A stretch of DNA of 41,705 bases from Candidatus Limnocylindria bacterium (GTDB lineage Bacteria > Chloroflexota > Limnocylindria > P2-11E), in assembly GCA_038324015.1 (NCBI GenBank), contig JBBQHN010000003.1, positions 1-41,705 on the forward strand. Direction: 5' to 3'. The translations under genes were made by a program, and so were the position numbers. The notes under the pieces are model-generated. The model was given only the letters and a program-made list of their open reading frames with translations. It had not been told where the DNA came from and searched no databases. Numbering within the stretch: position 1 is the first letter of the stretch; each line of letters begins with the position of its first letter. Shown here piece after piece: positions 2,106-32,120 of this stretch.

Positions 2106-3074
2106 CTAGAGGAACCACGCACCGTTGCCCGCCAAGCGGTCACGGGCCGCGAGGGCCGATCCGATGATGGACACATCGCCGCGCAGCGCGGACGGCACGA
2201 CCGAGCATGCGGCCGCCGGGACTTTGAAGGCGCGCTCCGCAATGGCCTTGCGCATGGGCTCGAGCACATGTCGCGGCTCGTGCTCGGCGATCGATCCGCC
2301 GATGACGATCCGCTCCGGATTGAGCGCGTTCACGATGCCGACCGCGAGGTTCTCGAGCGCTCGCATCGCGCGCGCGATGATCGCCGCGGCACGCGCTTCA
2401 CCCGCCGCGGCGCGCGCGTACACGACGCTCGCGTCGGTCACGCCGTACTCGTCCGCGATGTACCGCCCGGCCGCATAGGACTCGACGCAGTCGTAGCCGC
2501 CGCAGCGGCACTTCTTCCGACGCTCGAGGTCGACCGGGAAGTGGCCGAGCTCACCGGCGGTATTGGTCGCGCCGCGCAACATGCGACCGTCGGCGACGAT
2601 CGCGCCGCCCACACCGGTCGACACGGTGAGATAGACGAAGTTCCGGGCGCCCTTCGCCGCGCCGACGGTCCCCTCGCCGATGGCCGCCATGACGGTGTCC
2701 CGGTCGAGGAACACCGCCGGTCCGTCCAGCCGCTCCCTGAGCCGCGGACCGAGCGGGAAGTTCGCGTCGCTGAAGCCCGCGATGTTCTGCGTCGTCAGGA
2801 TGACGCCGGTCGTGTGGTCCAGCGGCCCGGGTGCCGAGCATCCGGCGGCGGCGATGTCGGTCATACGGACATTCGCCGCGCCGACCGCTGCAGCGGCGCT
2901 CGCGACGAGCGCGTCGACGACCGAGTCCGGGCCGGTCTGCGGCGTCGGGCGCGCGTCGCGGCCGAGGAGGATCGCGGTGTCACCATCGAAACGCGCGACC
3001 GCGGCGCGGATGTTCGTACCGCCGAGGTCGAATCCGAGGTAGAGCGGGCTCAGGTCCGGATCACCCGGGATCAG
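2106..3074 (-). CDS. ROK family sugar kinase (glucokinase-like); true start upstream of the ORF-track ATG, probably CTG at 3074 or 3053
   Basis: The in-frame upstream extension encodes LYLGFDLGGTNIRAA (ROK ATP-binding motif). Also STGVGG, GELGH, CRCGGYDCVE zinc motif, LNPERIVIGG. Confidence 0.88.
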   Translation of the reverse strand: MIPGDPDLSPLYLGFDLGGTNIRAAVARFDGDTAILLGRDARPTPQTGPDSVVDALVASAAAAVGAANVRMTDIAAAGCSAPGPLDHTTGVILTTQNIAGFSDANFPLGPRLRERLDGPAVFLDRDTVMAAIGEGTVGAAKGARNFVYLTVSTGVGGAIVADGRMLRGATNTAGELGHFPVDLERRKKCRCGGYDCVESYAAGRYIADEYGVTDASVVYARAAAGEARAAAIIARAMRALENLAVGIVNALNPERIVIGGSIAEHEPRHVLEPMRKAIAERAFKVPAAACSVVPSALRGDVSIIGSALAARDRLAGNGAWFL

Positions 3075-4654
3075 ACCTTGGGCAGTCGCCCGCTGACGTC
3101 AGGCGCGGCCAGTGCCGATGCATCGGCGCCGAAGACCTGCTGCTGAGCCGCGCGATATCCCTTCTTCGCCTTGTCCTTCCCGAAGGTGCGCTCGGCGTCC
3201 TCGAAGATCTGCGACACCAGCATCGCGAGGTACGGGACGGCCTGCGATTCGGGAACGTTCTCGCGATCGAGCGCCTGTGCGTCGATGCGGTCGTCGACGA
3301 TCGGCAGCGGCCGGTCGATCGGCTCGGCCTGCTCGTCAACGCGCATCAGGAGGTTCGCCATGCGGTCATCGAGCCGGCCCTTTCCGTAGGTACCGCTGTT
3401 GTACTCGGCGAGCAGCGCGTTCGAGAACGACGCGAGCTGGCCCGCGCGTCCAACGCCGGCGCCCGGCGCGGCGTCCGCGGCAGTGGCGGCCGTCGGGAGC
3501 GACGCGTCCTTTGGGGCCTCCTCCTTCTTGAGGAAGCCGAAGAGACCCTTCTTCTTCTCCTCGACCGGCGCGGGTGCCTGCATCTCGGGCGCCATGCGGG
3601 ACCACTCGCTGATGCGGTCGGTCGCCACCGGCGGTGGCTCGACCGGAACGGGCGCTGCCGGCGCCGGCGCGAACACGCCGCTCAATGCCGCAAGACGCTC
3701 GTCCTGCGCGGCTGGGATGTCGACTGGCGACAGCGCGGGCGCGATCTCCGGCTCGACGACCGGCGGGCTCATCCGCGCGTCGAGGGCCGCCGCGAGATCG
3801 GCGCGGAGATCAGGCTGCGGTGTCTCCCAGTGCTGCGCGGGCGCCGGGTCCCAGGTCTCTGCTGGCGCGGGCGGAGCAGGCTGCTCCCAGCTTTGGCCGA
3901 GCGGCTCCGGTGACGACCAGCGTTCCGGCTCAGCGGCGGGAGCGGGCTCCGGCTCGGCGGCGGGAGCGACGTACAAGGGTGCGGGTTCAGGAACCCAGGC
4001 GGGCGCTTCCGGCGCCGGAGCGACCCACACGGGTGCGGGCGGGCTCCACGGTTCCGGCATTGCAACAGGCTCGAGTGCCGGCGGCGGGTAGGCGGGCTGC
4101 GCCTGCTCAGCCGCGGGCTCGAGGACATCAATGAATCCGGTGTCGACCAGCGCCGCGAGGGCCGCGCGGGTCGCGAGCTTGCCCGTCTTCAGGTGATCAG
4201 CGACGCCCTGTACGTCGCGATCGCCATTGACCGCAAGCAGCGTCCGCCACTGGTCCGGCTCGAGCGTGATGTTGCCTTTCTCCGCAGCGCGCTCGGAGAG
4301 ACGGAAACGCGAACGGTCGTCAGGTATGACCTTGCGGACCGCGACGATACGGTCGCGCTCCAGGACGGCTTTGTCGAGCAGCTGGTCGAGGTCGCCCGAG
4401 AGATTCGAAGCGGGGCTCTCGTTCCAGGGGATGAACTCGAAGGCGCCGACCGACACCGCGAAGATCGCGCCGAGCGCGGGCTCACCGGTGTCCTCGCTGG
4501 CGATGGCCGCGACGAGCCGGCCGCCATCGAAGCCGAGCGTGCCGCCAGTGGAGTCGGTCCCGCGGACCTCGAGCTGTCCCGTCTTGTTCGTCGAGTGGAT
4601 GAGCTGGACGACCGTCTCGAGCGGGAAGGAGTCGAGCTCCCCACGCAATGTCAT
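3071..4654 (-). CDS. DUF4388 (PatA-N-like) domain protein with a long Pro/Ala/Glu-rich linker and an unknown C-terminal domain
   Basis: N-terminus LRGELDSFPLETVVQLIHSTNKTGQLEV...FDGGRLVAA...GAFEF matches the DUF4388 pattern. ATGA overlap with malK. Confidence 0.75.
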   Translation of the reverse strand: MTLRGELDSFPLETVVQLIHSTNKTGQLEVRGTDSTGGTLGFDGGRLVAAIASEDTGEPALGAIFAVSVGAFEFIPWNESPASNLSGDLDQLLDKAVLERDRIVAVRKVIPDDRSRFRLSERAAEKGNITLEPDQWRTLLAVNGDRDVQGVADHLKTGKLATRAALAALVDTGFIDVLEPAAEQAQPAYPPPALEPVAMPEPWSPPAPVWVAPAPEAPAWVPEPAPLYVAPAAEPEPAPAAEPERWSSPEPLGQSWEQPAPPAPAETWDPAPAQHWETPQPDLRADLAAALDARMSPPVVEPEIAPALSPVDIPAAQDERLAALSGVFAPAPAAPVPVEPPPVATDRISEWSRMAPEMQAPAPVEEKKKGLFGFLKKEEAPKDASLPTAATAADAAPGAGVGRAGQLASFSNALLAEYNSGTYGKGRLDDRMANLLMRVDEQAEPIDRPLPIVDDRIDAQALDRENVPESQAVPYLAMLVSQIFEDAERTFGKDKAKKGYRAAQQQVFGADASALAAPDVSGRLPKV

Positions 4655-5775: not shown

Positions 5776-6309
5776 TCACGGGAGGTCGATGAGCAGCCTC
5801 GTGAGCGATGGCCGTCGCGGCCCCTGCTCGGCCGGTCCGATGAGGCGCGCGCGGATCGCGTCGGATCTCGAGATGAGGGCACCCGTAACGAGGCGCCCGA
5901 GGACCCGGATACGGAACGCGACGGCGCCGGGTGGTGGCTGCAGCGCGACCCGGAGCTGCCGGTCGAGGCCGACGCGCACGAACGGCGAGTCGACGGTCGC
6001 GAGCTGGCGCGAGCGCCGATCTGACACCGCGTAGTAGGCGACACGGACGAACGCTTCGGCGACATCGGGATCGTCCACCGCGAGCTCGACCGTCAGCTCC
6101 ACCGGGCTACTCGCGGGACCGAGCGGATGCAACAGACCTTCGACGCCCCAGGCGCGGCCGGCCGGGATCCCGATGATCAGTCCTCCGGCATCCTGATCGA
6201 GGACGCCGCGCGGCGTCGTGCGCCGGAACGGCCCGCCGGGATCCGCGGACGCGGGCGCTGCCGAGGACACGACCACGACGACAGCGATAAGAAGGACGGC
6301 CCGGCGCAT
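5776..6309 (-). CDS. Hypothetical secreted protein
   Basis: Signal-peptide-like N-terminus MRRAVLLIAVVVVVSSAAPASA-D. Fills the intergenic gap. TAGCGT -10 box 6 nt upstream of the ATG. Confidence 0.65.
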   Translation of the reverse strand: MRRAVLLIAVVVVVSSAAPASADPGGPFRRTTPRGVLDQDAGGLIIGIPAGRAWGVEGLLHPLGPASSPVELTVELAVDDPDVAEAFVRVAYYAVSDRRSRQLATVDSPFVRVGLDRQLRVALQPPPGAVAFRIRVLGRLVTGALISRSDAIRARLIGPAEQGPRRPSLTRLLIDLP

Positions 6310-6381: not shown

Positions 6382-9348
6382 CTAGGCGAACTCGATCTCC
6401 CACGTACCGATCTCAAATGCCTCGAGGGTCGCCGCCGCCGAGCCGTAGCGCAGCTCGAGCGGCGCCGCGGTCCGCACGACGTCGAGTCCGGTATTGCCGA
6501 GCTCGAGCTCGCCCTCGCGAAGATCGAGCGGACGTGACGTGCGGACCGGACGCGCGAAACGCAGGGTCGTGCGCGCGACATCCTTGCCTGGATTCACGAG
6601 CCGGATGACGATGCGATCCGGTGTGCGCGCCCGGATCGCGGAGAGCGTCACTGCGGGATCGCCGTCGAGGAAGCAGAACGAGCGCTCCTCGCCAGCGCCC
6701 GTGCCGAGCCAGGCCGGCGAGAGGAACTCGCGGATCGTTCGCGCGGCCTCAGGCACGCCGATCGTCTCGCTCAGCGGCACGACGCAGTAGCGAAAGGTCA
6801 TCTCGCCGAGGCACTGCGCGGACGGTGTCTCGAGGCGCGGGCCGGCGTCGCCCTTCCGCTCCGGGAGGTCACGGCGCGAGAGCCAGCCGACCGAGCGGAA
6901 CAATGTGACCGCGATGGCGCTCCCGTCGCTCTGGACCGAGTACTCGCGAAGACCGTCGGCCCCGACGGCGATGCCAGAGCCACCGGACCGCACAGCCACC
7001 AGATCGTGGAAGCAGCGCTCAGGCGTCGGCGGCTCGACCCAGCCGCGCTTGCGCGGGGCCCGGTTCGATCGCTCCAGCCAGGCGAAGCCGGCACCGGCCG
7101 TGTGCGTCGCGGTCCGCAGGCCGGTGTCGAAGACGACCTTCAGCCGGTGATCGCGTGCCGCGTTGGTGACGGTCGCGCTGACATCGACCTGCGATGCGCC
7201 CGCGTCGAGCGAGATGACGAATCGGACACGGTTGTCGACGAGCTCGGGCCGCCGCGCGAGACGGTCGTCACGGAGCGATGGCGGGAGCCGCAGCACGACG
7301 TCGACCGTGACGAGCGCGCGATCACCCTCGACGCGCGTCGCTCGCCGGCCCACGAGCCCCCTCGATCCGATCGTCGGACCGGCGTACGAGTACGTGTACA
7401 CGTCGCCGCGGTCGCCCTCGTCGATGAGCAGGTTCTGCCGCGGGCTCCGGGTCTCGGTCGCGCGATCGATCACGGTGAAGCTCCCGTCCTCTTCGACCTC
7501 GACGCGCAGCCGCTCGTTCACGATGACGCCGGCCTCGGGCGCGCTCACGCCGTCGGTCCGTGCCCGCACCGCCGGTGTGACGCCGAGCGGCGCACAGCTG
7601 ATCACCGTGAGGCGGCCGTTGATCGGCACCACCGCGTCGCGCACCCAGGGCAGGCCGCTCCACACCACCGGCGCGCCGCCGACGCCCGAGAGCGTCGTGC
7701 ACAGCTCGCTCACGACGCGCTCGCCACCGGCCTGCACCATGGCAAAGCGCGGCGTCATGTCCAGGTCGTGCACCGCGTCGGCCGAGCAGCCGCAGATCGA
7801 GTCGTGCGGCTGGTTCGCGAGAAGCGTGCGCCAGAGCGAACGGATCGTCTCGCTCGCCGTACCGCCCGCGAACGCGTCCAACGGCTCGCAGCGCTCCAGC
7901 AGCAGCCGTTCGCAGGCCGCGTTCTCCTGCTTGATCCACATGCGCGTCGAGTTGACCCCGCGGAGGATCGGCCGGTACTTGCCGGAGACCATCTCCCCGA
8001 TGAAGACCCCACGCGGCGCGGGCAGCGCGGCGACGAACTCCTCGAGCGTCGCGATGCGCGCCCTCGTCCGCGGCGCCACCCTGCCGATCGCGTCGACCGC
8101 GTCTGGGAGCGTCTCGAACGCCTGGGTATGGTCGTCATCGACCATGAACAGGAGCGCATCGCCCGCCGCGTATGGCGCGGTGGTCGCCATGATCCGCGGC
8201 AGCATCGCGCGCACACGGCGCGGGATGTCCGCGACCGGGGTGCCGCCATCGGCGACGAGACCGAGCGCGTTGTTGTAGTGGCCGACCTGGTGCGACGCGA
8301 CGACCCGGTCGCCCGACGGCGCTTCCCACTTGAATTCGCTCCCGAGCGCCACGCCCTCATCACCGACCCCGCGGGCGAACACATAGGAGTCGTAGCCAAA
8401 CCCGCGGAGGAGCTGCGGCATCTGCGCCGGGTGGCCGAATGGGTCTGCGACATACGCGACGCGCGAGGCGCGCCCGAGCGAGCCCGCGACGCGCAAGCCC
8501 TCCTGGAAGTTGCGGATCAGCGATTCACCGGCGACGAGGAGCAGATCCGCGAGGACGTACCAGGGACCGATGAGCAGCCGGTCGGCACGGACGAGCGCTT
8601 CGATGCGCGGCCGGTCCTCCGGCCGGACAGCGAGGTGATCCTCGAGCGGGATCGTCTGCCCATCGAAAGTGAATGAGCGGAACCGCGGCTCCCGCTCGAG
8701 CAGATCGAGCAACGCGGAGACCATCGGGACGAGCCGCCCACGGAACGCCTCGAAGCGCTCGTACCACTCCCGGTCCCAGTGGGTGTGCGGCACCACGAAG
8801 ATGCGCCACGGGAAAAGACGCAGCACCCACGCGACGATCGGCGGCGCCGCGAGCCCCCAGGCGATGCCGACGATCGCGCCGCCGAGGGCATCGAGCGGGT
8901 AATGCACGCCGACGAAGACCCGCGACAGCCCGACGGCCGCCGCGAGCAGGATCGCGAACGGGCGGAAACGCGGAAAGCACTGGCCGAAGGCGACGGCCGC
9001 GCCGAACGCCAGTGCCGTATCTCCCGACGGGAACGAGTAGGACGAAGGCTCGGGGATGATCGCGGGCAGCGCATCCGGGATCGCGAGGAACGGCCGCGGC
9101 CGCTGCACGATGCGCTTGATGGTCTCGGCCGTGGCCCACGCGAGGACCATGCCGATGAAGATCGTGAGCGCGACCCAGAGCCCGCGCCTGCCGCCGCGGG
9201 TGCGCCAGAGCACGATGCCGAGCAGCCACCACTGGAGTCCCTGGAAGTTCAGGTACGTGACGACGATGGCGACGACCGCGATGAGCGGATTCCGCGCCGA
9301 GACGATCGCCGTGTAGAGGTGCTGGTCGAACGCAAAGAGCTGATCCAT
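6382..9348 (-). CDS. Fusion: N-terminal membrane PAP2-family phosphatase + C-terminal GH38 alpha-mannosidase (MngB-like), ~988 aa
   Basis: PAP2: KRIVQRPRP (C1), FPSGD (C2 variant), SRVFVGVHYPLD (C3), about five hydrophobic helices. GH38: VPHTHWDREWY, FDGQ, IGPWYV, DPFGH, HDSICGCS. ATG at 9348 overlaps the DedA stop (TGATG). Confidence 0.9.
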   Translation of the reverse strand: MDQLFAFDQHLYTAIVSARNPLIAVVAIVVTYLNFQGLQWWLLGIVLWRTRGGRRGLWVALTIFIGMVLAWATAETIKRIVQRPRPFLAIPDALPAIIPEPSSYSFPSGDTALAFGAAVAFGQCFPRFRPFAILLAAAVGLSRVFVGVHYPLDALGGAIVGIAWGLAAPPIVAWVLRLFPWRIFVVPHTHWDREWYERFEAFRGRLVPMVSALLDLLEREPRFRSFTFDGQTIPLEDHLAVRPEDRPRIEALVRADRLLIGPWYVLADLLLVAGESLIRNFQEGLRVAGSLGRASRVAYVADPFGHPAQMPQLLRGFGYDSYVFARGVGDEGVALGSEFKWEAPSGDRVVASHQVGHYNNALGLVADGGTPVADIPRRVRAMLPRIMATTAPYAAGDALLFMVDDDHTQAFETLPDAVDAIGRVAPRTRARIATLEEFVAALPAPRGVFIGEMVSGKYRPILRGVNSTRMWIKQENAACERLLLERCEPLDAFAGGTASETIRSLWRTLLANQPHDSICGCSADAVHDLDMTPRFAMVQAGGERVVSELCTTLSGVGGAPVVWSGLPWVRDAVVPINGRLTVISCAPLGVTPAVRARTDGVSAPEAGVIVNERLRVEVEEDGSFTVIDRATETRSPRQNLLIDEGDRGDVYTYSYAGPTIGSRGLVGRRATRVEGDRALVTVDVVLRLPPSLRDDRLARRPELVDNRVRFVISLDAGASQVDVSATVTNAARDHRLKVVFDTGLRTATHTAGAGFAWLERSNRAPRKRGWVEPPTPERCFHDLVAVRSGGSGIAVGADGLREYSVQSDGSAIAVTLFRSVGWLSRRDLPERKGDAGPRLETPSAQCLGEMTFRYCVVPLSETIGVPEAARTIREFLSPAWLGTGAGEERSFCFLDGDPAVTLSAIRARTPDRIVIRLVNPGKDVARTTLRFARPVRTSRPLDLREGELELGNTGLDVVRTAAPLELRYGSAAATLEAFEIGTWEIEFA

Positions 9349-9983
9349 CAGGGCTTGCGGAGGTGACGCCAGATGAAAAGGCCGACCGCTGCCACGATGA
9401 CGGCGGCGATGATGTAGTCGAGCCCCGCAAGGTCGTGCTTGATATCGGTCCAGTTGGCACCGAGCAGCATGCCGCCCCAGACGAGGAGCATGACCCACGG
9501 GATCGTGCCGAGGATCGAGAACGCGACGAACCGCCAGAGCGGCATCCGCGCGATACCCGCGGGCACCGAGATGAACGTCCGCACGATCGGGAGCATGCGC
9601 GAGAAGAAGACGGTCGCGTCACCCCAGCGCTTGAAGTGGCGGTCCGCGACATCGAGGTCATGGGTCGAGATGAGCACGTACCTCCCGTATCGCTCGAGCA
9701 GCGGCCGGCCGCCGTAGGCGCCGACCGCATATGCGACGAGCGATCCGAGCGTGTTCCCGGCGACGCCCGCAATGACCGCGCCCCAATATGACCAGAGCTG
9801 CCCGGTCAGCGGCTCGCGTACCGCCTGCGCGACGGAGAACCCCGCCAGCGGCAGGATCAGCTCGCTCGGCACGGGGATCGCGGCGCTCTCGATGGCCATC
9901 GCGACGACGACGCCGAGGTAGCCGAACGTCGCGTAGGCCCGCTCCAGCAATGGCAAGACGTACGCGTCGATGGCCAGAAGCAC
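9348..9983 (-). CDS. DedA family membrane protein
   Basis: IESAAIPVPSELILPLAGF, GSLVAYAVG, FKRWG, FFSRMLPIVRTFISVPAG. GTG at 9983 chosen because the longer ORF-track start overlaps the divergent gene. Confidence 0.93.
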   Translation of the reverse strand: MLLAIDAYVLPLLERAYATFGYLGVVVAMAIESAAIPVPSELILPLAGFSVAQAVREPLTGQLWSYWGAVIAGVAGNTLGSLVAYAVGAYGGRPLLERYGRYVLISTHDLDVADRHFKRWGDATVFFSRMLPIVRTFISVPAGIARMPLWRFVAFSILGTIPWVMLLVWGGMLLGANWTDIKHDLAGLDYIIAAVIVAAVGLFIWRHLRKP

Positions 9984-10046
9984 CCCGTTATCATCGGGCC
10001 TGAGGCAGACGGGTGGGTCCGGAAGAAAAAGACCGGGGAGACGCCC
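9984..10046. promoter_or_regulatory. Short divergent promoter region with overlapping -10-like hexamers
   Basis: TATCAT on + (9989-9994). GATGAT on - (9990-9995), 6 nt before GTG 9983. GGGGAG SD before ATG 10047. Confidence 0.45.
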
Positions 10047-11252
10047 ATGCGCCACGCGACCGCTTCGGCCCTCGACGACCGGCTCCGCGACGGTCTCGCA
10101 CGCGTCGGGAGCGCAGATCTGCTCGTCGGGATACCGAGCTTCAACAACGCCGGCACGGTCGGGCACGTCGCCCGCACGGTGGCGGAAGGTCTCCGCGCGC
10201 ACTTTCCCGATGCGACACCCGTGATCGTCAACGCCGACGGCGGGTCAAAGGACGGAACGAGCGACGTGGTCGCGCGTTCGACCGGCGCTATCCCGACCAT
10301 CACCGGCGCGTACGTCGGTCCGCCCGGCAAAGGCTCCGCGTTCCGTGCGATCTTCGAGGTCGCGACCGAGCTCGGCGTACAGGCCTGCGCCGTGGTGGAT
10401 AGCGATCTCCGCAGCATCACGCCCGAGTGGATCAAGCGGCTCATCTCGCCGGTCCGCGAACGCAGCGCCGACTACGTCACGCCGCTCTACGCACGTCACA
10501 AGTTCGACGGCACGATCACGAACAATGTGGCCTACCCGCTCACGCGCGCGCTGTACGGCCTGCGCCTGCGCCAGCCGATCGGCGGCGAGTTCGGCTTCAG
10601 TCCCGAGCTGGCCCGCGACTTCCTCGATGGCACAGCGCTCGGAGGCACAGACGTCTGGACCACGGACGTCGCGCGCTTCGGCATCGATATCTACATGACG
10701 ACTACGGCGCTCGCGACCGGACGCCGCGCGGTCCAGGCGTTCCTTGGCGCGAAGATCCACGACCCCAAGGATCCGGGATCGGACCTGGCGCCGATGTTCA
10801 CGCAGGTCGTGAGCACGCTGTTCCGCCTGGCGATCGCGAACGCCGACCAGTGGAGGGACGTGCGCGGATCGAAAGCCCCGACGATCGTCGGCTCGATCGA
10901 CCCCGTCGAGCCCGAGGCCGTGAACGCGAGCGTGGACATCCTCCGGCAGAAGTACGCCGCCGGTCGCATCGAGCATCAGACGACGTGGGACGAGATCCTG
11001 AGCAGCCCGGTGCCGGATCACCTCGACGACGCGGCGTGGGCCCGCATCCTGTTCGACTTCGTGCTTGCGTCGAAGAAGCGGCCCGCCGACATCCAGCGCT
11101 ACGTCACGGCGCTCGTCCCGCTGTACTTCCTGAAGGTCGCCGCCTTCATCGATGAGGCGAAGGATCTCGATACGGATCACGCCGAAGCGCTCGTCGAGCG
11201 CCAAGCATCGACGTTCGAACAGCTGAAGCCCGAGCTGGCGAAGCGCTGGTGA
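10047..11252 (+). CDS. GT-A glycosyltransferase, glucosylglycerate/mannosylglycerate synthase (Ggs/Mgs)-like
   Basis: VGIPSFNNAGT, NADGGSKDGT, PGKGSA, VVDSDLRSITPEW, PLYARHKFDGTITN, LRQPIGGEFG, FGIDIYMT, KIHDPKDP: the pattern of single-step glycerate glycosyltransferases. Confidence 0.75.
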   Translation: MRHATASALDDRLRDGLARVGSADLLVGIPSFNNAGTVGHVARTVAEGLRAHFPDATPVIVNADGGSKDGTSDVVARSTGAIPTITGAYVGPPGKGSAFRAIFEVATELGVQACAVVDSDLRSITPEWIKRLISPVRERSADYVTPLYARHKFDGTITNNVAYPLTRALYGLRLRQPIGGEFGFSPELARDFLDGTALGGTDVWTTDVARFGIDIYMTTTALATGRRAVQAFLGAKIHDPKDPGSDLAPMFTQVVSTLFRLAIANADQWRDVRGSKAPTIVGSIDPVEPEAVNASVDILRQKYAAGRIEHQTTWDEILSSPVPDHLDDAAWARILFDFVLASKKRPADIQRYVTALVPLYFLKVAAFIDEAKDLDTDHAEALVERQASTFEQLKPELAKRW

Positions 11253-13357
11253 CCGTCGCCATGAAGGAGGATGGCCTCGTCCTCGTCACCGAGGACGACG
11301 GCAGCCTCCCGTTGGGTACCTCCACCGCGCTCGGGCTTTACTACCACGACACCCAGTACCTCTCGGGCTACTCGCTGCGCATCAACGGTCAGGCGCCGGC
11401 GCTCCTCTCGGCCAACACCGAGGAGAACTACGTCGGCGCGTTCCAGCTCGCGAACCGTCCCGCGACCCTCGAGGACGGGTCGATCCTCGCGTCCCAGTCG
11501 CTCTCCGTACGGCGCACCCGGTTCCTGGCCGACGGCCTGCGCGAGCGCGTCGGGATCCTGAACTGCAATCCGGGAAAGGTCCGGCTGCGCATCGAGCTCG
11601 AGTTCGACGCGTCGTTCCAGGACCTGTTCGCGGTGCGCGGCTACCGCGGGCTCGCGCGTACGACGGAGGAGACGCCGCTCGAGATCATCCCCAATGGCAT
11701 CCGCTTCTCGCGGCTCGGCCGCGACGCCGTGCGCCGCACCACCGACATCACGATGCGGCCCGCGCCCGACCAGATCAGCGGACGCACGTTCGTCCTCGAG
11801 CGCGAGCTCGCGCCACAGGAGATCGTGACCTACGAGCTGGCCGTCGTGCCGCGGGAGGACGGCGTGGGCGCGGCACCGGCGCCCCGCGATTTCGACGAGG
11901 CGCTCGACGCGTTGAACGCTCGCTACCGCAAGTTCCTGCGTGGCTGCGCGGCGTACACGACCAGCTCGGAGTCGCTCGATGACGAGCTCGTGCTGCGAAG
12001 TGCGCTCGATCTACGCGCACTCATCGACGAAGAGGAGACCGGCCTCTACGTGACCGCCGGGATCCCGTGGTACGCGGTGCCGTTCGGACGCGACGGGCTC
12101 ATCGCGGCCTATCAAACCCTGGCCTGGAACCCCGATATCGCGAAGGGCACGCTGCGCCTGCTCGCGAAGTACCAGGGCACCAAGGTGGACCGCTTCACCG
12201 AAGAAGAGCCCGGCAAGATCTTCCACGAGCTCCGGCGCGGCGAGCTCGCGCGCCTCGGTGAGGTCCCGCACCGTCCGTACTACGGCACGGTCGACGCGAC
12301 CCCGCTCTTCGCGATGCTGTTCGCCGAGACCGTGAAGTGGACGGGCGATCGGGTCTTGTGGCGCGAGCTGCTGCCGGCGGCCGAGCGCGCGATCGCGTGG
12401 TGCGACACCTACGGCGACGCGGACGGCGACGGCTACATCGAGTACGGCGCGAGCCCGAGCGATCTCCGCAATCACGGCTGGAAGGACTCGGCGAATTCGC
12501 TGTCCGACCCCGACGGCCAGCCAGCGGCGCTTCCCGCGGCGCTCGTCGAGGCGCAGGCGTACGTGTATGCGGCGAAGTGCGGCGTCGCGGACCTCTACGC
12601 GCTCGATGGCGACGACGAGCGCGCGGTAAAGCTGCGCGCCGAGGCCACAGCGCTCGCGGAGCGATTCGAGCGCGACTTCTGGATGGAGAACGAGGGCTGC
12701 TACGCCCAGGCGCTGGACGGGAATAAGAAGCAGGTGTCCGCCGTCACGAGCAACGCCGGGCACGCGCTCTGGGCCGGGATCGCGCGGCCAGACCGCGCGA
12801 AGCGCGTCGTCGAACGGCTCATGGCGCCGGACATGTTCAGCGGCTGGGGCGTGCGCACCCTGTCATCGACCTACCCGACCTACAACCCGATGAGCTACCA
12901 CAACGGCTCGGTGTGGCCGCACGACAACTCGCTGATCGCCCAGGGCTTCGTGCGCTACGGCTTCCGCGAAGAAGCGAACGCGATCATCGAAGCGCTCATC
13001 GAGGCCGGCAAGCGCTTCCCGAACGCACGCCTGCCGGAGCTGTTCTGCGGCTTCCAGCGCGACCTGCGGTTCTCGTCTCGACCAGCCGACTACCTCGTAT
13101 CGTGCATCCCGCAAGCGTGGTCCGCAGGGATGGTGTTCCTCTGTTTGCGGTCGCTCCTCGGTCTCGAACCGGACCTCGAGCGCCGGCGCGTCACGGTCGA
13201 CCCGGCGCTCCCGGTGTGGCTCGACACCATCGAGGTGCAGCATCTTCGCGCGTATGACTCGACCATCTCGTTCCGTGTCCGCCGTTCGGGTCGCAGCATC
13301 ACGGTGACCGGCGGCGGATCGCGCGTGGTGCGCGCACCCGCGCCGATCGCCACGTGA
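11249..13357 (+). CDS. Amylo-alpha-1,6-glucosidase / glycogen-debranching-like (alpha/alpha)6 glycoside hydrolase
   Basis: GLYYHDTQYLS, AGIPWYAVPFGRD, EEPGKIFHELR, YYGTVDATPLF, GWKDS, YHNGSVWPHDN, RLPELFCGF. GTGA overlap; alternative ATG at 11261. Confidence 0.88.
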   Translation: MTVAMKEDGLVLVTEDDGSLPLGTSTALGLYYHDTQYLSGYSLRINGQAPALLSANTEENYVGAFQLANRPATLEDGSILASQSLSVRRTRFLADGLRERVGILNCNPGKVRLRIELEFDASFQDLFAVRGYRGLARTTEETPLEIIPNGIRFSRLGRDAVRRTTDITMRPAPDQISGRTFVLERELAPQEIVTYELAVVPREDGVGAAPAPRDFDEALDALNARYRKFLRGCAAYTTSSESLDDELVLRSALDLRALIDEEETGLYVTAGIPWYAVPFGRDGLIAAYQTLAWNPDIAKGTLRLLAKYQGTKVDRFTEEEPGKIFHELRRGELARLGEVPHRPYYGTVDATPLFAMLFAETVKWTGDRVLWRELLPAAERAIAWCDTYGDADGDGYIEYGASPSDLRNHGWKDSANSLSDPDGQPAALPAALVEAQAYVYAAKCGVADLYALDGDDERAVKLRAEATALAERFERDFWMENEGCYAQALDGNKKQVSAVTSNAGHALWAGIARPDRAKRVVERLMAPDMFSGWGVRTLSSTYPTYNPMSYHNGSVWPHDNSLIAQGFVRYGFREEANAIIEALIEAGKRFPNARLPELFCGFQRDLRFSSRPADYLVSCIPQAWSAGMVFLCLRSLLGLEPDLERRRVTVDPALPVWLDTIEVQHLRAYDSTISFRVRRSGRSITVTGGGSRVVRAPAPIAT

Positions 13358-14556
13358 GGCAGAAGAAGCAGCGCGTCCTCTTCCTCCATTACACCGCGCC
13401 GTCGATCCTCGGCGGCGTCGAGCATGTGATGGGCATCCACGCGCAGGCCGCGAAGGACGCGGGCGATCGCGTCGCGATCGTCGCCGGACGGGGCACCGCA
13501 CGCGGGATCCCGGTCGTGATGATCCCGGAGCTCGACTCGCAGCACCCCGCGGTGCTCCGCGACCGGGCGGCGCTCGCGCGCGGAGAGGTCACACCGGAGC
13601 ATGCCGCGCTGGTCGCACGGATCACCCGCGCGTTGCGGCCACACGTACGTCGCGCCGATCGCGTGGTCGTGCACAACGTGTTCACGATGACGCTGAACGC
13701 CGCGCTGACCGAAGCGCTGTTCGCGCTGGCCGCTGAGCACGAGGGCGTGTTCGTCGCCTGGACCCACGATCTTGGCTGGAAGGACGGGCAATACACGGCG
13801 CAGCGGCATGAGGGTCGCCCGTGGTCCCTCTTCGCCACCGCAGCCCCCGGCGTCCGCTACGTCGCGATATCGGAGAAGGCCCGGGCCGAGCTCTCCGCAC
13901 TCACCGGTCTGGCGCGCGACAAGATCACGCTCGTGCCCAACGGGGTCGACCGCATCGCGGTGCTCGGACTATCGGCCCGCGGCGTGCGGCTCGCGAAGGC
14001 GTTCGAGCTCTTCGACGCCGATCCGCTGCTGCTGCTTCCGGTCAGGATGACGCGCCGCAAGCGGATCGAGATCGCGATCGATGCGCTCGCGATCCTGCGC
14101 ACGCGCTACCCGCTCGCAGCGCTCGTTGTGACGGGTGGACCGGGCGCGCACAACCCAACGAACGCCGCGTACGAGCAGGAGCTCAAGAAGCGGGCGGGGC
14201 CCGGCGTGCATCTCTTCCACACCGAGGGTGTCCGCCTGGGTGCGCGAGAGCTGGCCGATCTCTACGGCCTCGCAGATGCCCTCGTGCTGCCGTCCGAGAA
14301 CGAGGGCTTCGACCTCCCGATGCTCGAGGCGGGCCTGCGACGCATGCCGATCATCTGCACCGACATCTCGGCACTCCGCGAGGTCGCCGGCGATGACGCG
14401 ACGTACGTACCGCTGAGCGGTGATGGCAGGTCGTTCGCCGAGGCGATCAAGACTCGGCTTCTCGCCGACCCGATCGCACGGCTGCACCGGCGGGCGCGGC
14501 AGAACGAGTGGCCGAGGATCCTGGCCGAGCTCGTGCTACCTGTCATACACGGATGA
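13354..14556 (+). CDS. GT4 (GT-B) glycosyltransferase, MggS-like
   Basis: GGVE, WTHDLGW, VPNGVD, PVRMTRRKRIE, LPSENEGFDLPMLEAG (EX7E). GTGA overlap. Confidence 0.85.
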   Translation: MRQKKQRVLFLHYTAPSILGGVEHVMGIHAQAAKDAGDRVAIVAGRGTARGIPVVMIPELDSQHPAVLRDRAALARGEVTPEHAALVARITRALRPHVRRADRVVVHNVFTMTLNAALTEALFALAAEHEGVFVAWTHDLGWKDGQYTAQRHEGRPWSLFATAAPGVRYVAISEKARAELSALTGLARDKITLVPNGVDRIAVLGLSARGVRLAKAFELFDADPLLLLPVRMTRRKRIEIAIDALAILRTRYPLAALVVTGGPGAHNPTNAAYEQELKKRAGPGVHLFHTEGVRLGARELADLYGLADALVLPSENEGFDLPMLEAGLRRMPIICTDISALREVAGDDATYVPLSGDGRSFAEAIKTRLLADPIARLHRRARQNEWPRILAELVLPVIHG

Positions 14557-16340
14557 AGTGCCTCGTCGTCATCACCGATGCCACGCGTGACAAGCCCCTT
14601 ATCGACGTCGCCGCAGCGCTCGCGGGCACGGCTGACATCGTCCTCGCGTCGATCATCGAGGTGCCGGAGGGCGAGACGCTCGCCTCCGCGCAGCCGCAGG
14701 CCCGTGCCCGACGCAAGGATCTCGTCGCGCTCGCGGCTCCGCTCACGGTCCGGCCGATCGTGACCGTCGCGCGGCGGGGCTGGGCCGCGGTCGTCGAGGC
14801 CGCCCACGACGAACACCCCGACCTTCTGCTCATCGGCTGGCGTCGGCCGGGTTGGGATTACCTCGGGACGACGATGGAGGACATCCTCCGCGACCCACCC
14901 TGCGACCTCGCGATCGTGAAGGGCCCGGCGGGACGCGGGCGGCGGATCCTCGTTCCGGTGCGCGGCGGCCGCTACGCGGAGCTCGCTGCGAAGCTCGGCG
15001 TCGGGCTCGCTCGCGCACGCAAGGGCACGGTCACGCTCCTCCATGTCGTCCCCGCCGGCGCCACGAGGCGGTCTGGCGCGACCCTCTACCAGCTGGTCGG
15101 TGAGCACGCCTTCGACGAGCGTGTCGACGAGCTCCTCACGCGCGTCGGTGACGCGACGAAAGTCATCGTCGACGAGCTCAGCCGCCACGACCTCATCGTC
15201 TTCGGCGCGAGCGGCGGAGCCGCACCGCTCGGACCGATCGGCCAGGAGATCATCGCCGAGGCACGTTCAGCGATCATCGTTCGCACCCACACGCCGGTCG
15301 CATCGAACGTGTTCCTGTCGCCCTCACCGCTTCCCACCGACCGCACGGAACGGAGCAAGGCGATCGGCGAGCTCGTCGACAAGTGGTTCGTCGAGAACAC
15401 GTTCACCAGTGCGGAATTCGCGAATCTCGCGGCCCTCGTCGCCCTGAAGGAGAAGCAGGGCCTTCGTATCTCGGTCGCGCTGCCGACGCTCAACGAAGAG
15501 GAGACCGTCGCGAAGGTCATCACCGTTGTCCGCAGCCGGCTGATGGAGCGCGTCCACCTGGTGGACGAGCTCATCGTCATCGACTCGAACTCGACGGACC
15601 GGACCCGCGAGATCGTGCGCGGGCTCGGCGTTCCGGTGTACATCCATCAGGAGCTGCTGCCGGAGGTCGGTCCCGGACGAGGCAAGGGCGAGGCGCTCTG
15701 GAAGAGCCTCTCGGTCACGACGGGCGATATCGTGGTCTGGGTGGACACGGACGTGTCCAACTTCCACCCGACATTCGTGTATGGGCTGCTCGGCCCGCTC
15801 CTGGTCCGGCCCGAGATCGCGTTCACCAAGGCCTTCTACCGGCGTCCACTCGATGTCGGCTGGCAGCTGCAGCCGACCGGCGGCGGCCGCGTCACCGAGC
15901 TCGCGGCGCGCCCGATCCTCAACATGTTCTTCCCGGAGCTCTCGGGGATGATCCAACCGCTGTCCGGCGAGCAGGCTGGTCGCCGCAGCGTCCTCGAGCG
16001 GCTCCCGTTCTTCAGCGGGTACGGGATCGAGACCGGGCTGCTCATCGACGTGCTGCGCGACTCGGGTCTCAAGTCCATCGCGCAGGTCGACATGAAGCAG
16101 CGCATCCACCGCAACCAGTCGCTGCTCGCGCTCACGAAGATGTCGTTCGAGATCCTGCAGGTGGCGATGAAGCGGCTCGGCGACGCCCGCGGCGAGAGCC
16201 TGCTCGACGCCGCGAACCTGACGATGAAGCTGATCTCGCCGACGGCCGAGGGATTCCATCTCGAGGTCCAGGACGTGAGCATCGTCGAGCGGCCACCGAT
16301 GATCTCGGTGCCGTCGTACCGGGATCGCGCCCGCCGCTAG
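14553..16340 (+). CDS. gpgS: Tandem universal-stress-protein domains fused to glucosyl-3-phosphoglycerate synthase (GT81)
   Basis: N-terminal USP-like repeats (HPDLLLIGW...LGTTMEDILRDPPCDLAIVK; RILVPVRGG...HDLIVFGAS). C-terminal LPTLNEEETV, GKGEALWKSL, VDTD, GGGRVTELAARP, QPLSGE, GYGIE, RIHRNQ. ATGA overlap at 14553. Confidence 0.85.
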   Translation: MKCLVVITDATRDKPLIDVAAALAGTADIVLASIIEVPEGETLASAQPQARARRKDLVALAAPLTVRPIVTVARRGWAAVVEAAHDEHPDLLLIGWRRPGWDYLGTTMEDILRDPPCDLAIVKGPAGRGRRILVPVRGGRYAELAAKLGVGLARARKGTVTLLHVVPAGATRRSGATLYQLVGEHAFDERVDELLTRVGDATKVIVDELSRHDLIVFGASGGAAPLGPIGQEIIAEARSAIIVRTHTPVASNVFLSPSPLPTDRTERSKAIGELVDKWFVENTFTSAEFANLAALVALKEKQGLRISVALPTLNEEETVAKVITVVRSRLMERVHLVDELIVIDSNSTDRTREIVRGLGVPVYIHQELLPEVGPGRGKGEALWKSLSVTTGDIVVWVDTDVSNFHPTFVYGLLGPLLVRPEIAFTKAFYRRPLDVGWQLQPTGGGRVTELAARPILNMFFPELSGMIQPLSGEQAGRRSVLERLPFFSGYGIETGLLIDVLRDSGLKSIAQVDMKQRIHRNQSLLALTKMSFEILQVAMKRLGDARGESLLDAANLTMKLISPTAEGFHLEVQDVSIVERPPMISVPSYRDRARR

Positions 16341-20340: not shown

Positions 20341-22095
20341 GAGGCGAGCACCGGTTCGAGCCCGGTGCGGAGGAGTGCGGCGAATCGTGAGCCCGGGTCA
20401 GCGGCGAGGTCGGTGCGCGGGCCGTGCTCGACCATGCGACCCTCATCGAGGATGAGGATGTCGTCGCAGCGGTAGACGGTCGCGAGCCGGTGCGCGAATC
20501 ACGATCGCGGTGCGATCCGCAAGGAGCGCGTCGATCGCCTCCTCGACGTGGCGCTCGGTGACCGGATCGAGCCGGGACGACGCCTCGTCGAGCACAAGCA
20601 GGCCCGGATCGCGGACGAAGACCCTCGCGAACGCCAGGAGCTGCGCCTCACCGGCCGAGAGGCCGCCCGCCGTCATGTCGGCGCCGAGCGGATCCGTCGG
20701 GGACTGCGCCCGGAGCCACGGCCCGAGCCCGATGTGCTCGACGATCTCCGTCAGCTTCGCGTCACCGACGGTGGGATCGAAGAAGGTCAGGTTGTTGCGC
20801 ACCGACGCGCTGAAAAGCTGGACGTCCTGGCTCACCAACGTCGCGCCCGTGCGCACCGAGTCGAGGGACGCGTCACGTAGGTCGACGCCGCCGAGCCGGA
20901 CGGCACCGCTCGTCGGGTCGTAGAACCGGAGGAGCAGCCGCGCAAGCGTGGTCTTGCCGCTGCCGGTGCGACCGAGGACACCGAGCACGCGCCCCGGCGC
21001 GATACGCAGCGAGACGTCGTGCAGCACGAGCGCGTCCTCGTAGGCGAAGGAGACCGAGTCCAGCTCCACCGCGAGCGGGCCGCCCGGCAGTGCCTGCCGT
21101 CCATCGTCGAGGACCGAACGCAGCCGGAGCAGCTCATCCACCCGGCCGACGCTCGCGATCGCCCGTTGCAGGTCCTCAAGCTCACGGCGGAATGCCTCGA
21201 TCGGCCGGCGCAGCAGCTCCGTGTAATAGAACAGGAGGTAGACCGTGCCGACGGAGATGGCGCCGATCGTCCACAACCAGCCGCCGACGGCGAACGCCAC
21301 AGCGTTGCCGATCGCGAACGTCAGGATGGTGGATGCCCAGATCACGCCGACACCGAGCATCGCGCGGCGGCGCGCCGCCAGCCACGAGCGGTGGTGCAGC
21401 GCGAGCCCGTTGAGGACGTGGGTCTCGGCGCCGCTCGAGCGGATGTCCTCGGTGCCGCCGAGCCGTTCGCCGAGGAAGCCGAAGGTCTGCGCGGACGACT
21501 CGCGCACCCGGCGCCAGCCACCGACCGCGATCGTGCGCAGCGGCCCGAGGAACAACCCGACCGCACCGAACGCGAAGAGCGTGAGCGCGAGGCCTGCGCG
21601 CCAGTCCTCGAACGTGACGACGACGAGAACGCCGACGAGCAACACGAGGTTCCCGAGGACGTTCACGATGAAGCGCGAGAAGAAGCCGCCAAGCGCGGTG
21701 ACGTCGCCGTCGATGCGCTCGATGAGCTCGCCCGGCGTCCGAGCCTTGTGGAAGCCCAGATCGAGCGTCAGGCAGTGCAGCGCGAGGTCCGCTCGCAGCG
21801 CATTGGTGGCGATCCAGCCGATGCTCTCGCCGAGGTATGTCGCGAACGCGGCGAGGATCTGTTGCCCGAGCGCGAACGCGACGAACAGGATCGCGATCTT
21901 CACCAGAAGATCCAGCTCCGCGCCATGGATCGCGTTGTCGATGAACGCGCGCAGAAGCTGGGGTGCCGCAAGCTGCAGACCGATGCTCGTCAGCAGCAGG
22001 AGACCGAGGATCACGACCTTCTGCCACTGCGGCGCGACATAGTGGCGGAAGAGATCCACGTAGCGATCTCGCACCCCGCTCGGCGCGGCCATCAC
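20337..22095 (-). pseudogene. ABC exporter half-transporter (TMD+NBD) with a +1 frameshift near 20497 (true lesion or sequencing error)
   Basis: GRTGSGKT, LSAGE, LVLDEASS. After IVI the expected AHRLATVYRCDDILILDEGRMVEHG...VLAS* continues in another frame and ends at TGA 20337-20339, overlapping the next GTG. Confidence 0.85.
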
Positions 22096-22739
22096 TCGAG
22101 CTCGGCGATCGCCGCCGGCAGACTGCTGAGGTCGCGGAGCACGCGTGTCGGCGTTGTGGTGAGCGGCTCGGCGTGGCGGTCGATGAAGACCGTGCGGAAG
22201 CCGAGCGCCGCCGCAGGCGGCATGTCGTGGTACTGGCTCGCGCCGACGTGCACCGTGTCCCTGGTCGACGCGCCGGTGAGCTCGGTGAACCGCTTCCAGT
22301 GTCCGGTCGCCGGCTTGTAGCTGCCGACGTCCTCGGCGGTCACGACGAGGTCGGGCACGATGCCGAGCTTCGGGATCGACGTCGCGATCAGATCGCGGTC
22401 GACGTTGGAGAGGATCGCGACCTTTCGACCCGCGGCCTGAAGGGCGCGGAGCGCCGCGGGGACCTCCGGGAACGCCTCCCAGCGCGGCAGCGAGGCCGGG
22501 AGCGGCGACGGCCGATCGATGCCGTGCCGGTGAAGGAGCGCCTTGCCCGCGCGATCGAGGACGTCGGAGTAGCGCAGGTACGCGCCGCCCTCGACCGTCG
22601 CCTCGGTCCGGATGTACTCCTGTGCGAGCGCGTCGGGATCGACCGGTCGATCGAACAACGGAAGGAGCGCGGCAACGATGCCGCCTTCCCAGTCGATGAG
22701 CGTGCCGTAACAGTCAAAGGTGCACCAACTGATCGCCAC
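22092..22739 (-). CDS. HAD-superfamily hydrolase (haloacid dehalogenase-like)
   Basis: FDCYGTLIDW, ILSNVD, SYKP, HVGASQYHD. Confidence 0.9.
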   Translation of the reverse strand: MAISWCTFDCYGTLIDWEGGIVAALLPLFDRPVDPDALAQEYIRTEATVEGGAYLRYSDVLDRAGKALLHRHGIDRPSPLPASLPRWEAFPEVPAALRALQAAGRKVAILSNVDRDLIATSIPKLGIVPDLVVTAEDVGSYKPATGHWKRFTELTGASTRDTVHVGASQYHDMPPAAALGFRTVFIDRHAEPLTTTPTRVLRDLSSLPAAIAELE

Positions 22740-22755
22740 GCCGGAAATGTACGGG

Positions 22756-23970
22756 CTAGCTGGCGATCCGTTCCGTGATCTCGGCTACGAGACGGCGCGC
22801 GATCTCAGCTTTCGGCAGCAGCGGCAGAGCCTCCGCACCGTCGGCGCTCACGAGCGTGACCTGGTCGGTGTCGCTGCCGAACTCGGAACCCTTCGCCGTC
22901 ACGTCGTTGGCGACGACGAGGTCGAGCCCCTTCTCCCGGAGCATGCGTGACGCCTCCGCGACCGCGTCACCGGTCTCGGCCTTGAAGCCCACGACCAGCG
23001 TGTGTGGGTCGCGCTTCTCGACGATCGCCTGCAGGATGTCGGGGTTCTTCACGAGGGGGATCGAGAGGGAGTCGCCTTGGTCGCGCTTCTTGAGCTTTTG
23101 GTGGGCGGGCGTCGCGGGCCGGTAGTCCGCGACGGCCGCGGCCATGACGACGGCGTGCGCGCCGCGGAGCGTGGCCAGCACGGCATCGCGCAGCTCGGCC
23201 GCGGTCTCGATGCGCACGACCGTGACGCCGGCGGGCGGGCGCAGCGCGACCGGCCCGCTGATCAGCGTCACCTCCGCACCCGCGCGCCGTGCCGCTGCCG
23301 CGATCGCATAGCCCATCTTGCCGCTCGAGCGGTTGGAGATGACGCGCACCGGATCGATCGGCTCGAGCGTCGGGCCCGCGGTGACGACGATCCGCTTCCC
23401 CGCGAGCGCGGTCGACGCCGCCAGCGCCTCCTCGATCGCCGCGAGGATCGTCTCGATCGGCGCCAGACGTCCCTCGCCATTCACGCCGGAGGCAAGCTCG
23501 CCACTCTCGGGCTCGACGATGACCGCGCCGCGCGCACGGAGCGTCTCGACGTTGGCCTGCGTCGCGGCGTTGGACCACATGTGCGTCTCCATCGCGGGCG
23601 CGATCACGACAGGGGCGTGCGCCGCGAGCACCGTCGTCCCGATCAGGTCGTCGGCCATCCCCTGCGCGAGGCGGGCGATCGTGTTCGCGGTCGCGGGCGC
23701 GATCACCACGACGTCGGCCTGCTGCCCCATCGCGACGTGGCCGGCGGCACGATCGTCGAACGTGCCGAACATCTCGACCTCGACCGGCCGGTATGTGAGC
23801 GCCTGGAAGGTGAGCGGCTGCACGAACTGCGTGGCGCCCGGCGTCATGACCACCTGTACGGTCACGCCGGCCTGGGTCAGGCGGCGTGCGAGCTCGACGA
23901 CCTTGTACACCGCGATCGAGCCGGTCACGCCGAGGACGACGAACCTGCCGCGCAGGACGTCGGCGCTCAT
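22756..23970 (-). CDS. coaBC: Phosphopantothenoylcysteine decarboxylase/ligase
   Basis: LGVTGSIAVYK, APATAN, PAMETHM, TAGPTLEPIDPVRVISNRSSGKMG, AAVADY, GFKAET, VANDV. ATGA overlap at 23970. Confidence 0.95.
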   Translation of the reverse strand: MSADVLRGRFVVLGVTGSIAVYKVVELARRLTQAGVTVQVVMTPGATQFVQPLTFQALTYRPVEVEMFGTFDDRAAGHVAMGQQADVVVIAPATANTIARLAQGMADDLIGTTVLAAHAPVVIAPAMETHMWSNAATQANVETLRARGAVIVEPESGELASGVNGEGRLAPIETILAAIEEALAASTALAGKRIVVTAGPTLEPIDPVRVISNRSSGKMGYAIAAAARRAGAEVTLISGPVALRPPAGVTVVRIETAAELRDAVLATLRGAHAVVMAAAVADYRPATPAHQKLKKRDQGDSLSIPLVKNPDILQAIVEKRDPHTLVVGFKAETGDAVAEASRMLREKGLDLVVANDVTAKGSEFGSDTDQVTLVSADGAEALPLLPKAEIARRLVAEITERIAS

Positions 23971-32048: not shown

Positions 32049-32120
32049 TGAGGGGCGAGGGATTCGAACCCTCGACCAAGGGATTAAAAGTCCCCTGCTC
32101 TACCGCTGAGCTAGCCCCCC
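32049..32120 (-). tRNA. tRNA-Lys (anticodon UUU); CCA not encoded
   Basis: GGGGGGC TA GCTC AGCGGTA GAGC A GGGGA CTTTTAA TCCCT ... GAGGG TTCGAAT CCCTC GCCCCTC A: full cloverleaf, followed by CCG. Confidence 0.95.

Follow-up and report, generated by a model that had tools for sequence, protein, structure and literature searches.

A PAP2–GH38 fusion in a single reading frame

The window analysed here, a stretch of 41,705 nucleotides of contig JBBQHN010000003.1 from a Candidatus Limnocylindria metagenome-assembled genome (MAG), carries a gene (P0001; 6382..9348, minus strand) in which a complete glycoside hydrolase family 38 (GH38) protein is joined to a PAP2 membrane domain in one open reading frame (ORF) of 988 amino acids. 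We propose, with a probability of roughly 0.6, that the product is a two-faced bifunctional membrane enzyme, in which an outward-facing PAP2 lipid phosphatase works together with a DedA protein encoded directly upstream and a GH38 alpha-mannosidase is tethered at the cytoplasmic side. The fusion itself had been suggested earlier by a reading of the sequence alone (the original prediction) and is confirmed: the 988 codons are translated without a stop, full-length orthologues occur in 88 of 401 genomes of the class, and all four Pfam domains score above their cut-offs, namely PAP2 (residues 61-172, E = 2.1e-20, 73.3 bits against a cut-off of 27.2), Glyco_hydro_38N (183-444, E = 6.1e-32, 111.5 bits against 25), Alpha-mann_mid (463-552, 45.4 bits against 31.1) and Glyco_hydro_38C (610-822, 35.8 bits against 25). 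From stop to stop, the frame extends to 9618, and its longest ORF would start with GTG at 9498. The start is placed at the ATG at 9348: orthologues align from residue 1, and most have 988-1000 amino acids. The full ORF predicts a product of 108 kDa, and an AlphaFold2 model of the whole chain, built on an alignment of 54 sequences, has a mean pLDDT of 94.0 and a pTM of 0.88.

According to this model, the last membrane helix (residues 151-177) ends at R177 and is followed by a link of only four residues, LFPW (178-181), before R182 opens the first GH38 strand (182-188; junction at 8803..8817, minus strand). This agrees with the earlier claim that the helix runs into the GH38 part without stop or frameshift, and the junction peptide AAPPIVAWVLRLFPWRIFVVPHTHWDREWY is present at about 8761-8850. 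In 72 fused proteins, W181 is invariant and R182 nearly so. No frame break or stop at the domain junction was found among the matches in the 401 class genomes; partial matches either run off their contigs or are interrupted elsewhere, within the GH38 part. Two orthologues show such lesions: G521:C36:8933-11807 shifts frame somewhere between about residue 438 and residue 467, and G611:C37:4274-7246 has an in-frame TAG in its GH38 part; either may be a sequencing error or decay. The junction region has no evident Shine-Dalgarno-like sequence, as had been noted before, and no evident ATG; in-frame GTG codons are found at V174, V185 and V186.

Contigs from public metagenome runs support the continuity of the gene as well. 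One contig from X1, which is probably the source sample, covers 8761-9600 with 0 differences, and one from X7 covers 8767-9600, so that both reach from PAP2 sequence into the first motif of GH38. In four runs, short-read contigs are interrupted at 8741-8801, inside the GH38 part and not at the junction. Summed contig depth peaks at 8728..8809 (up to 3485 in one run). Both the spike and the breaks are explained by the DNA coding for VPHTHWDREWY, which is near-identical among GH38 genes of many organisms and thus constitutes an assembler trap right beside the domain junction.

Distribution of the fusion

In the class search (401 genomes, namely a sample together with the source genome; match threshold E <= 1e-150), the full-length fusion was detected in most other members of the window's family (85 of 91 genomes) and in 2/2 genomes of a sister family in the same order, the latter with 49-51% identity over query residues 7-986. 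It was absent from the genomes searched in three other families of the class (0/153, 0/138 and 0/16; 0/307 in total). These tallies take in six genomes flagged as unpublished (G446, G427, G590, G467, G461 and G506), without which the family count is 79/85. A phylum search, again of 401 genomes including the window's own, yielded a GH38 match in 103, with the PAP2 part covered in only three, all from the window's family.

Protein databases gave a similar distribution. Among the 120 homologous clusters listed, 117 carry both PF01569 and PF01074 (60-92% identity, mostly 988-1000 amino acids), and the three without PAP2 are short partial sequences; their sources include Candidatus Limnocylindria and Chloroflexota MAGs, and their product names are generic. 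The best 150 matches among 1.84 billion representatives at 50% identity comprise two full-length fused clusters (P0055 and P0122), a few fragments and otherwise unfused GH38 proteins, which align only from query residue about 175-185. A protein atlas holds five clusters with PAP2 and GH38, and Chloroflexota is the commonest phylum among members with a record. Across orthologues, the divergence of the PAP2 and GH38 halves increases together, and some of the fusion ORFs sit on contigs of more than 1 Mb. No second GH38 was found in the source MAG (2.03 Mb, 69% complete).

PAP2–GH38 is an order-wide orthologous family that is not confined to the source genome, and it is present in public databases under generic names. 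It has so far been found in one bacterial order only and is phylogenetically narrow. Two outcomes that the original prediction had thought would speak against it can be judged from these data: relatives do not carry two separate genes, as 88 genomes share the ORF, and the architecture is conserved throughout the order, under generic names.

Catalytic sites and membrane topology

The PAP2 membrane domain takes up residues 1-180 (8809..9348, minus strand), with helices predicted by the model at residues 2-17, 21-33, 35-51, 53-81, 109-124, 126-145 and 151-177. Among solved structures, the best match to it is LpxE of Aquifex aeolicus (6ebu; phmmer E = 5e-14), followed by acid phosphatases and Bacillus subtilis PgpB/YodM. 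Membership of the PAP2 superfamily (PF01569) is indicated by the profile match and by the KX6RP and SRX5HX3D patterns, the latter with the nucleophile His. Invariance was scored in 72 fused proteins and in 29 genome orthologues. In motif C1 (K78-x6-R85-P86, here KRIVQRPRP; 9091..9117, minus strand), K78, R83, R85 and P86 are invariant, as are R143, G147, H149, P151 and D153 in motif C3 (R143-x5-H149-x3-D153; 8890..8922, minus strand); S142 of motif C3 is present in this protein and is not conserved within the fused clade. Motif C2 is an invariant variant, P107-S108-G109-D110 (9019..9030, minus strand), with Asp in place of the usual His, a departure that the original prediction had not mentioned. 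LpxE 6ebu aligns at this position with FPSGD, and in the accessible text of PMC6581854 the Aquifex enzyme is described as having Asp instead of the motif His and as hydrolysing C55-PP, Kdo2-lipid A and PGP; the same text reports that it rescues E. coli devoid of C55-PP or PGP phosphatases and places its site at the periplasmic surface. Because this active enzyme has the same Asp, the PSGD motif is compatible with activity, and the alignments firmly indicate that the PAP2 catalytic residues are under purifying selection, as are those of the GH38 half.

The nearest stand-alone PAP2 relatives have about 190 amino acids and share no more than about 40% identity with the fused domain; several are named undecaprenyl-diphosphatase by one source. 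A search of five genomes for a close stand-alone orthologue in the class's other families returned just two weak matches. We also considered the invariant GRRG of the cytoplasmic loop 53-56 as a fusion-specific docking site and rejected this idea, as stand-alone relatives have GG(K/R)(K/R)G(K/R) loops.

The GH38 half consists of an N-terminal catalytic domain (residues 183-444; 8017..8802), a middle domain (463-552; 7693..7962) and C-terminal beta domains (Pfam match 610-822; 6883..7521), with beta structure continuing in the model to residue 987; all lie on the minus strand. The original prediction had described the catalytic motifs as intact, which holds true: H190 and D192 of the H188-x-H190-x-D192 motif (8773-8787), D302 in DPFG (8443-8445), D406/H407 (8128-8133) and, in the middle domain, H515/D516 (7801-7806) do not vary across 54 GH38 sequences, fused and unfused, and H188 is invariant within the fused clade (72 proteins). 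Metal ligands, nucleophile and acid/base have been described for SpGH38 (D125/D232) and Drosophila mannosidase II (dGMII) in the accessible text of PMC2815779. By alignment, the putative roles in the fusion correspond to those in both enzymes, with D302 as the candidate nucleophile. In Foldseek, the fusion model came closest to 5kbp and 2wyh/2wyi (E = 1e-61, TM 0.79-0.80, 22-24% identity), so that three domain profiles, the metal and catalytic residues and the fold all place this half in GH38. Its best NCBIfam match is the mannosylglycerate hydrolase MngB (NF007331). The closest unfused GH38 relatives share 34-43% identity and start 2-25 residues ahead of the HTHWD motif; among eight GH38 clusters looked up, two of them fused, the single named one is unfused and belongs to Gaiellaceae.

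The PAP2 site was predicted to face outward, with the GH38 domain in the cytoplasm, and our analysis is in line with this arrangement. Counts of Lys and Arg in 29 orthologues average 4.0 in loop 49-56, 1.8 in loop 125-129 and 3.1 after the last helix, and together with the position of the motifs in the LpxE alignment they suggest that the PAP2 site lies outside and the GH38 C-terminus in the cytoplasm. The last helix is predicted to run from out to in, and the GH38 domain would therefore be held at the cytoplasmic face. A complex prediction for the PAP2 part (1-180) with the GH38 part (181-988), based on 72-row alignments and without controls, gave a score of 0.01 and a mark of 0.32, which weighs neither way.

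The DedA partner and the sugar-gene neighbourhood

Directly upstream of the fusion lies a DedA gene (9348..10202, minus strand), not mentioned in the original prediction, whose stop overlaps the ATG of the fusion by one base (TGATG); the fusion gene is translationally coupled to it. The DedA ORF matches the Pfam VTT_dom profile (E = 1.7e-22, 80.6 bits against a cut-off of 33.9), and the model that fits it best is that of the undecaprenyl phosphate transporter UptA (NF052604, E = 1.8e-47). The maximal ORF is conserved only from residue 60-75 onwards, so translation probably begins near 9980-10020. DedA precedes the fusion directly in 28 of 31 loci of the window's family (in the other three, the contig stops within the fusion gene) and in both loci of the sister family (2/2). 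DedA proteins of the UptA-like subfamily are described as UndP flippases, and single-chain DedA–PAP2 fusions have been reported (accessible texts of PMC9876793 and PMC10127716).

Five genomes were searched for further carrier-lipid genes. Among PAP2 matches, the fused domain ranks first in each of them, and in G402 (95% complete) it is the only one found. PMT/ArnT-type GT-C enzymes are present in 5/5 genomes and appear to point to polyprenyl-phosphate-sugar-dependent glycosylation outside the membrane. Their frames are very large throughout, with 1230-1416 amino acids (G000:C11:19661-20134 and relatives).

On the other side of DedA, a divergent cluster of sugar genes occupies 10047..16340 on the plus strand. 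It comprises a very divergent GpgS-like glycosyltransferase (GT; 10047..11252, 48 bits to GpgS), a GDE_N_bis/MGH1-like hydrolase recognised by profile match (about 11156..13357), a GT4 that weakly resembles mannosylglucosylglycerate synthase (about 13258..14556, 53 bits against a cut-off of 640) and a Usp–GpgS fusion (about 14424..16340), in which residues 318-629 match GpgS with 379 bits (cut-off 262) and two Usp stretches are found, the best at residues 45-166. Gene order is fixed in 11/11 loci of 20 kb from six genera of the window's family: GAPDH, ROK, DUF4388, a MalK-type ATPase, a small ORF, the fusion and DedA on the fusion strand, and the GpgS-like GT, GDE/MGH1-like hydrolase, GT4 and Usp–GpgS fusion on the divergent strand. 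We treat this cluster as context for the fusion only, whether or not it belongs to the same system.

Proposed function and alternative explanations

Based on the conserved sites, the predicted topology and the gene context, we propose the following hypothetical scheme, in which (i) the N-terminal 180 residues would form a small lipid phosphatase of the LpxE/PgpB type, with a site composed of K78, R85, H149, D153 and Asp110; (ii) at the outer face, this site would remove phosphate from polyprenyl diphosphate (C55-PP) and perhaps from further lipid phosphates; (iii) the resulting monophosphate carrier would be flipped back to the inner face by the UptA-like DedA; and (iv) GH38, as a retaining, metal-dependent alpha-mannosidase tethered at the cytoplasmic face by the last membrane helix, would act on a small cytoplasmic alpha-mannoside, either a solute of the mannosyl(-glucosyl)glycerate type supplied by the GpgS/GT4 neighbours or an imported manno-oligosaccharide. 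Both domains are probably catalytically active. We slightly favour the view that the fused PAP2 acts on C55-PP together with DedA. A small cytoplasmic mannoside is preferred as the GH38 substrate because of the sugar-gene neighbourhood and the known substrates of GH38 relatives; we accordingly lean, by a similarly narrow measure, towards a soluble substrate, and consider a lipid-linked one unlikely. The fusion itself, the tight membrane link and the constant DedA partner nevertheless leave room for a lipid-linked substrate and for coupling between the phosphatase and mannosidase activities. Such coupling is possible, but the persistence of the fusion alone does not prove it, because fused genes are not easily separated again. 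As for its origin, a single event in the ancestor of the order, in which a DedA–PAP2 operon would have joined a neighbouring GH38 gene, is the simplest and most likely history.

Several observations weigh against this bifunctional scheme. The strict PSGH motif of the PAP2 superfamily is absent from the fusion, which reads PSGD, and in the nearest stand-alone relatives the residue is His in 16/17 and Asp in 0/17, for which reason a changed chemistry or substrate of the PAP2 site is possible. Equivalog cut-offs were missed throughout, by the fusion for MngB (356.1 bits against 1138, which makes it a relative and not an orthologue), SepP (61.4 against 250) and PRK11837 (39.6 against 229), and by the DedA ORF for UptA (162 bits against 250); the names UptA, SepP and MngB hence express likeness only. 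BacA/UppP is present in 5/5 genomes tested, so the fused PAP2 is not needed as sole C55-PP phosphatase. Neither DedA nor PAP2 was found near unfused GH38 genes (0/13 loci, nine with 1.5-kb and four with about 6-kb flanks), which leaves a link between GH38 and carrier lipids unsupported outside the order. Synteny within a single family may reflect low rearrangement rather than shared function, and the GT cluster is not adjacent to the fusion in the sister family. The surroundings there still concern sugars: in one genome of that family, the neighbours of the fusion–DedA pair are two alpha-amylases, a GDE-like hydrolase and a sugar ABC importer. Mannosyl-3-phosphoglycerate synthase (MpgS, PF09488) was found in 0/5 genomes, which weakens mannosylglycerate as an endogenous GH38 substrate.

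The alternative that survives best, although we hold it to be quite unlikely, is that the two activities are coupled in carrier-lipid salvage. In this case, GH38 would trim polyprenyl-(di)phosphate-linked or other membrane mannosides at the inner face, PAP2 and DedA would recycle the same carrier, and the fusion would serve to hold the mannosidase on its lipid substrate. The gene fusion and its strict co-occurrence with DedA across two families speak for such coupling, as do the very short membrane link, the conserved junction and the PMT/ArnT-type users of polyprenyl-phosphate sugars in all five genomes, and the pTM of the whole-chain model hints at a defined domain arrangement. On the other hand, we know of no lipid-linked alpha-mannoside in the window's lineage. 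Polyprenyl-phosphate mannose is beta-linked, and a retaining alpha-mannosidase should therefore not cleave it. Unfused GH38 loci are without the DedA/PAP2 adjacency, and for the nearest GH38 enzymes of known structure the substrates are free mannosides without a lipid (accessible text of PMC2815779). Less probable still is a more specific form, in which DedA, PAP2 and GH38 make up one carrier-lipid salvage machine: GH38 would strip alpha-mannose from stalled or surplus polyprenyl- or lipid-linked mannosides at the inner face, and the PAP2 site and the DedA flippase would return the carrier from the outer face.

It is improbable, too, that the PAP2 part is a dead phosphatase serving as a mere membrane anchor for the mannosidase. 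The exchange of His for Asp could mark a loss of activity, given that 16 of the 17 nearest stand-alone relatives keep His, and PAP2 has changed more quickly than GH38: in distant orthologues, identity is 33-61% for the PAP2 domain against 58-79% for the GH38 N-domain. With BacA in all five genomes, phosphatase activity could moreover be dispensable. However, neither the other catalytic residues nor the Asp itself varies among the 72 proteins, whose overall identity goes down to 49%, and an anchor would not keep catalytic residues. Furthermore, Aquifex LpxE is active with the same Asp, and the fused protein is the best PAP2 match in five genomes and the sole one found in G402.

There is a similarly slim chance that a separate soluble GH38 is also, or mainly, made from an internal start near the junction, so that the fusion would partly be a matter of annotation. 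The start positions of unfused GH38 proteins and the three in-frame GTG codons would fit such a product; the lack of an evident ATG or Shine-Dalgarno-like sequence does not, and the frame is open across the junction in every genome searched, which selection for a fused product would explain. An assembly chimera or a wrong merger of two genes, to which the contig breaks at 8741-8801 might point, is effectively refuted by the position of these breaks inside GH38, by the X1 and X7 contigs that cover PAP2 through the first GH38 motif, by the occurrence of the same ORF in 88 genomes from many assemblies and by the joint divergence of both halves.

Relation to known enzymes

The two halves of the fusion belong to well-known enzyme families, and it is their combination that is new in the searchable literature. 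Like Aquifex LpxE 6ebu, B. subtilis PgpB/YodM 5jki and E. coli PgpB/YbjG, the fused PAP2 is an all-helical domain of about 180 residues; these small lipid phosphatases share with it the KX6RP and RX5HX3D motifs, and LpxE, whose substrates include lipid A 1-phosphate, also the Asp in motif 2. The similarity to LpxE is remote (E = 5e-14, residues 5-167 aligned). The host of the fusion is a Chloroflexota MAG, and only the fusion bears a C-terminal GH38 part of 808 residues, which the characterised PAP2 proteins are without. The multi-domain fold is shared with the GH38 enzymes of Enterococcus faecalis (3lvt/5kbp), Streptococcus pyogenes (SpGH38, 2wyh) and E. coli (MngB), as are the metal-binding, nucleophile and acid/base positions and the lack of a signal peptide. 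In contrast to these soluble enzymes, the GH38 of the fusion is attached to a membrane domain. In the single-chain DedA–PAP2 and DUF368–PAP2 fusions of PMC9876793 and PMC10127716, assigned to undecaprenyl phosphate recycling, PAP2 is joined to a flippase, whereas here DedA and PAP2 are encoded by a coupled gene pair and PAP2 is fused to a glycoside hydrolase, a partner that goes unmentioned in the accessible texts of both papers.

The original prediction knew of no characterised protein with this architecture, and our literature search, which did not cover the supplementary architecture tables of the DedA papers, likewise found no published description of it. A paper on Limnocylindria genomics (PMC13212565) makes no mention of mannosidase, PAP2, glucosylglycerate, cell envelope or peptidoglycan. 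An outward lipid phosphatase joined to an inward glycosidase is thus undescribed in the papers found. If the activities were coupled, sugar trimming would be tied to recycling of the carrier lipid on which every cell-envelope polymer relies, in an abundant, uncultured lineage of soil and sediment, and if the salvage explanation were true, the polyprenyl phosphate cycle of these bacteria would have a glycoside hydrolase as an integral component. Without coupling, the protein would still be a clean natural case of a soluble GH38 that has become membrane-tethered. In addition, the fusion provides a ready marker gene for the order and a defined protein for testing the PSGD variant of the PAP2 site.

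Other features of the window

DedA and the divergent GpgS-like GT overlap as maximal ORFs (9980..10050). Judging by where conservation sets in, the real spacer measures only about 60 bases, into which two divergent promoters must fit. The stretch 10047..14556 on the plus strand resembles an island for synthesis and breakdown of glycosyl-glycerates, with no phosphatase gene obvious inside. The fused PAP2 is unlikely to act as the glucosyl- or mannosyl-3-phosphoglycerate phosphatase of this adjoining cluster, its site being predicted at the outer face and a HAD hydrolase being encoded at 22092..22784. The Usp–GpgS protein, which is kept in 11/11 family loci, combines a stress-sensor-like domain with a compatible-solute synthase.

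Downstream of the fusion, 29 of 31 family loci have an ORF of 177 amino acids (here 5776..6309, minus strand); its N-terminus resembles a signal peptide, and a beta-sandwich is predicted (model pLDDT 69). It has no Pfam or NCBIfam match, and the fold search returned only weak jelly-roll/CBM-like matches (E about 1e-3, none at E <= 0.001); an invariant FRRTTPR-like segment follows just past the signal peptide. A further ORF of 527 amino acids with an N-terminal DUF4388 domain (3071..4654, minus strand), whose start overlaps the stop of the MalK-type ATPase (4651..4654), sits between MalK and ROK in 11/11 family loci. A tRNA gene is located at 32049..32120 (minus strand; Rfam, 72 bits), and the rest of the window is housekeeping in nature, with genes for BipA, an ABC exporter, CoA biosynthesis, a formiminotransferase and an enolase-superfamily enzyme.

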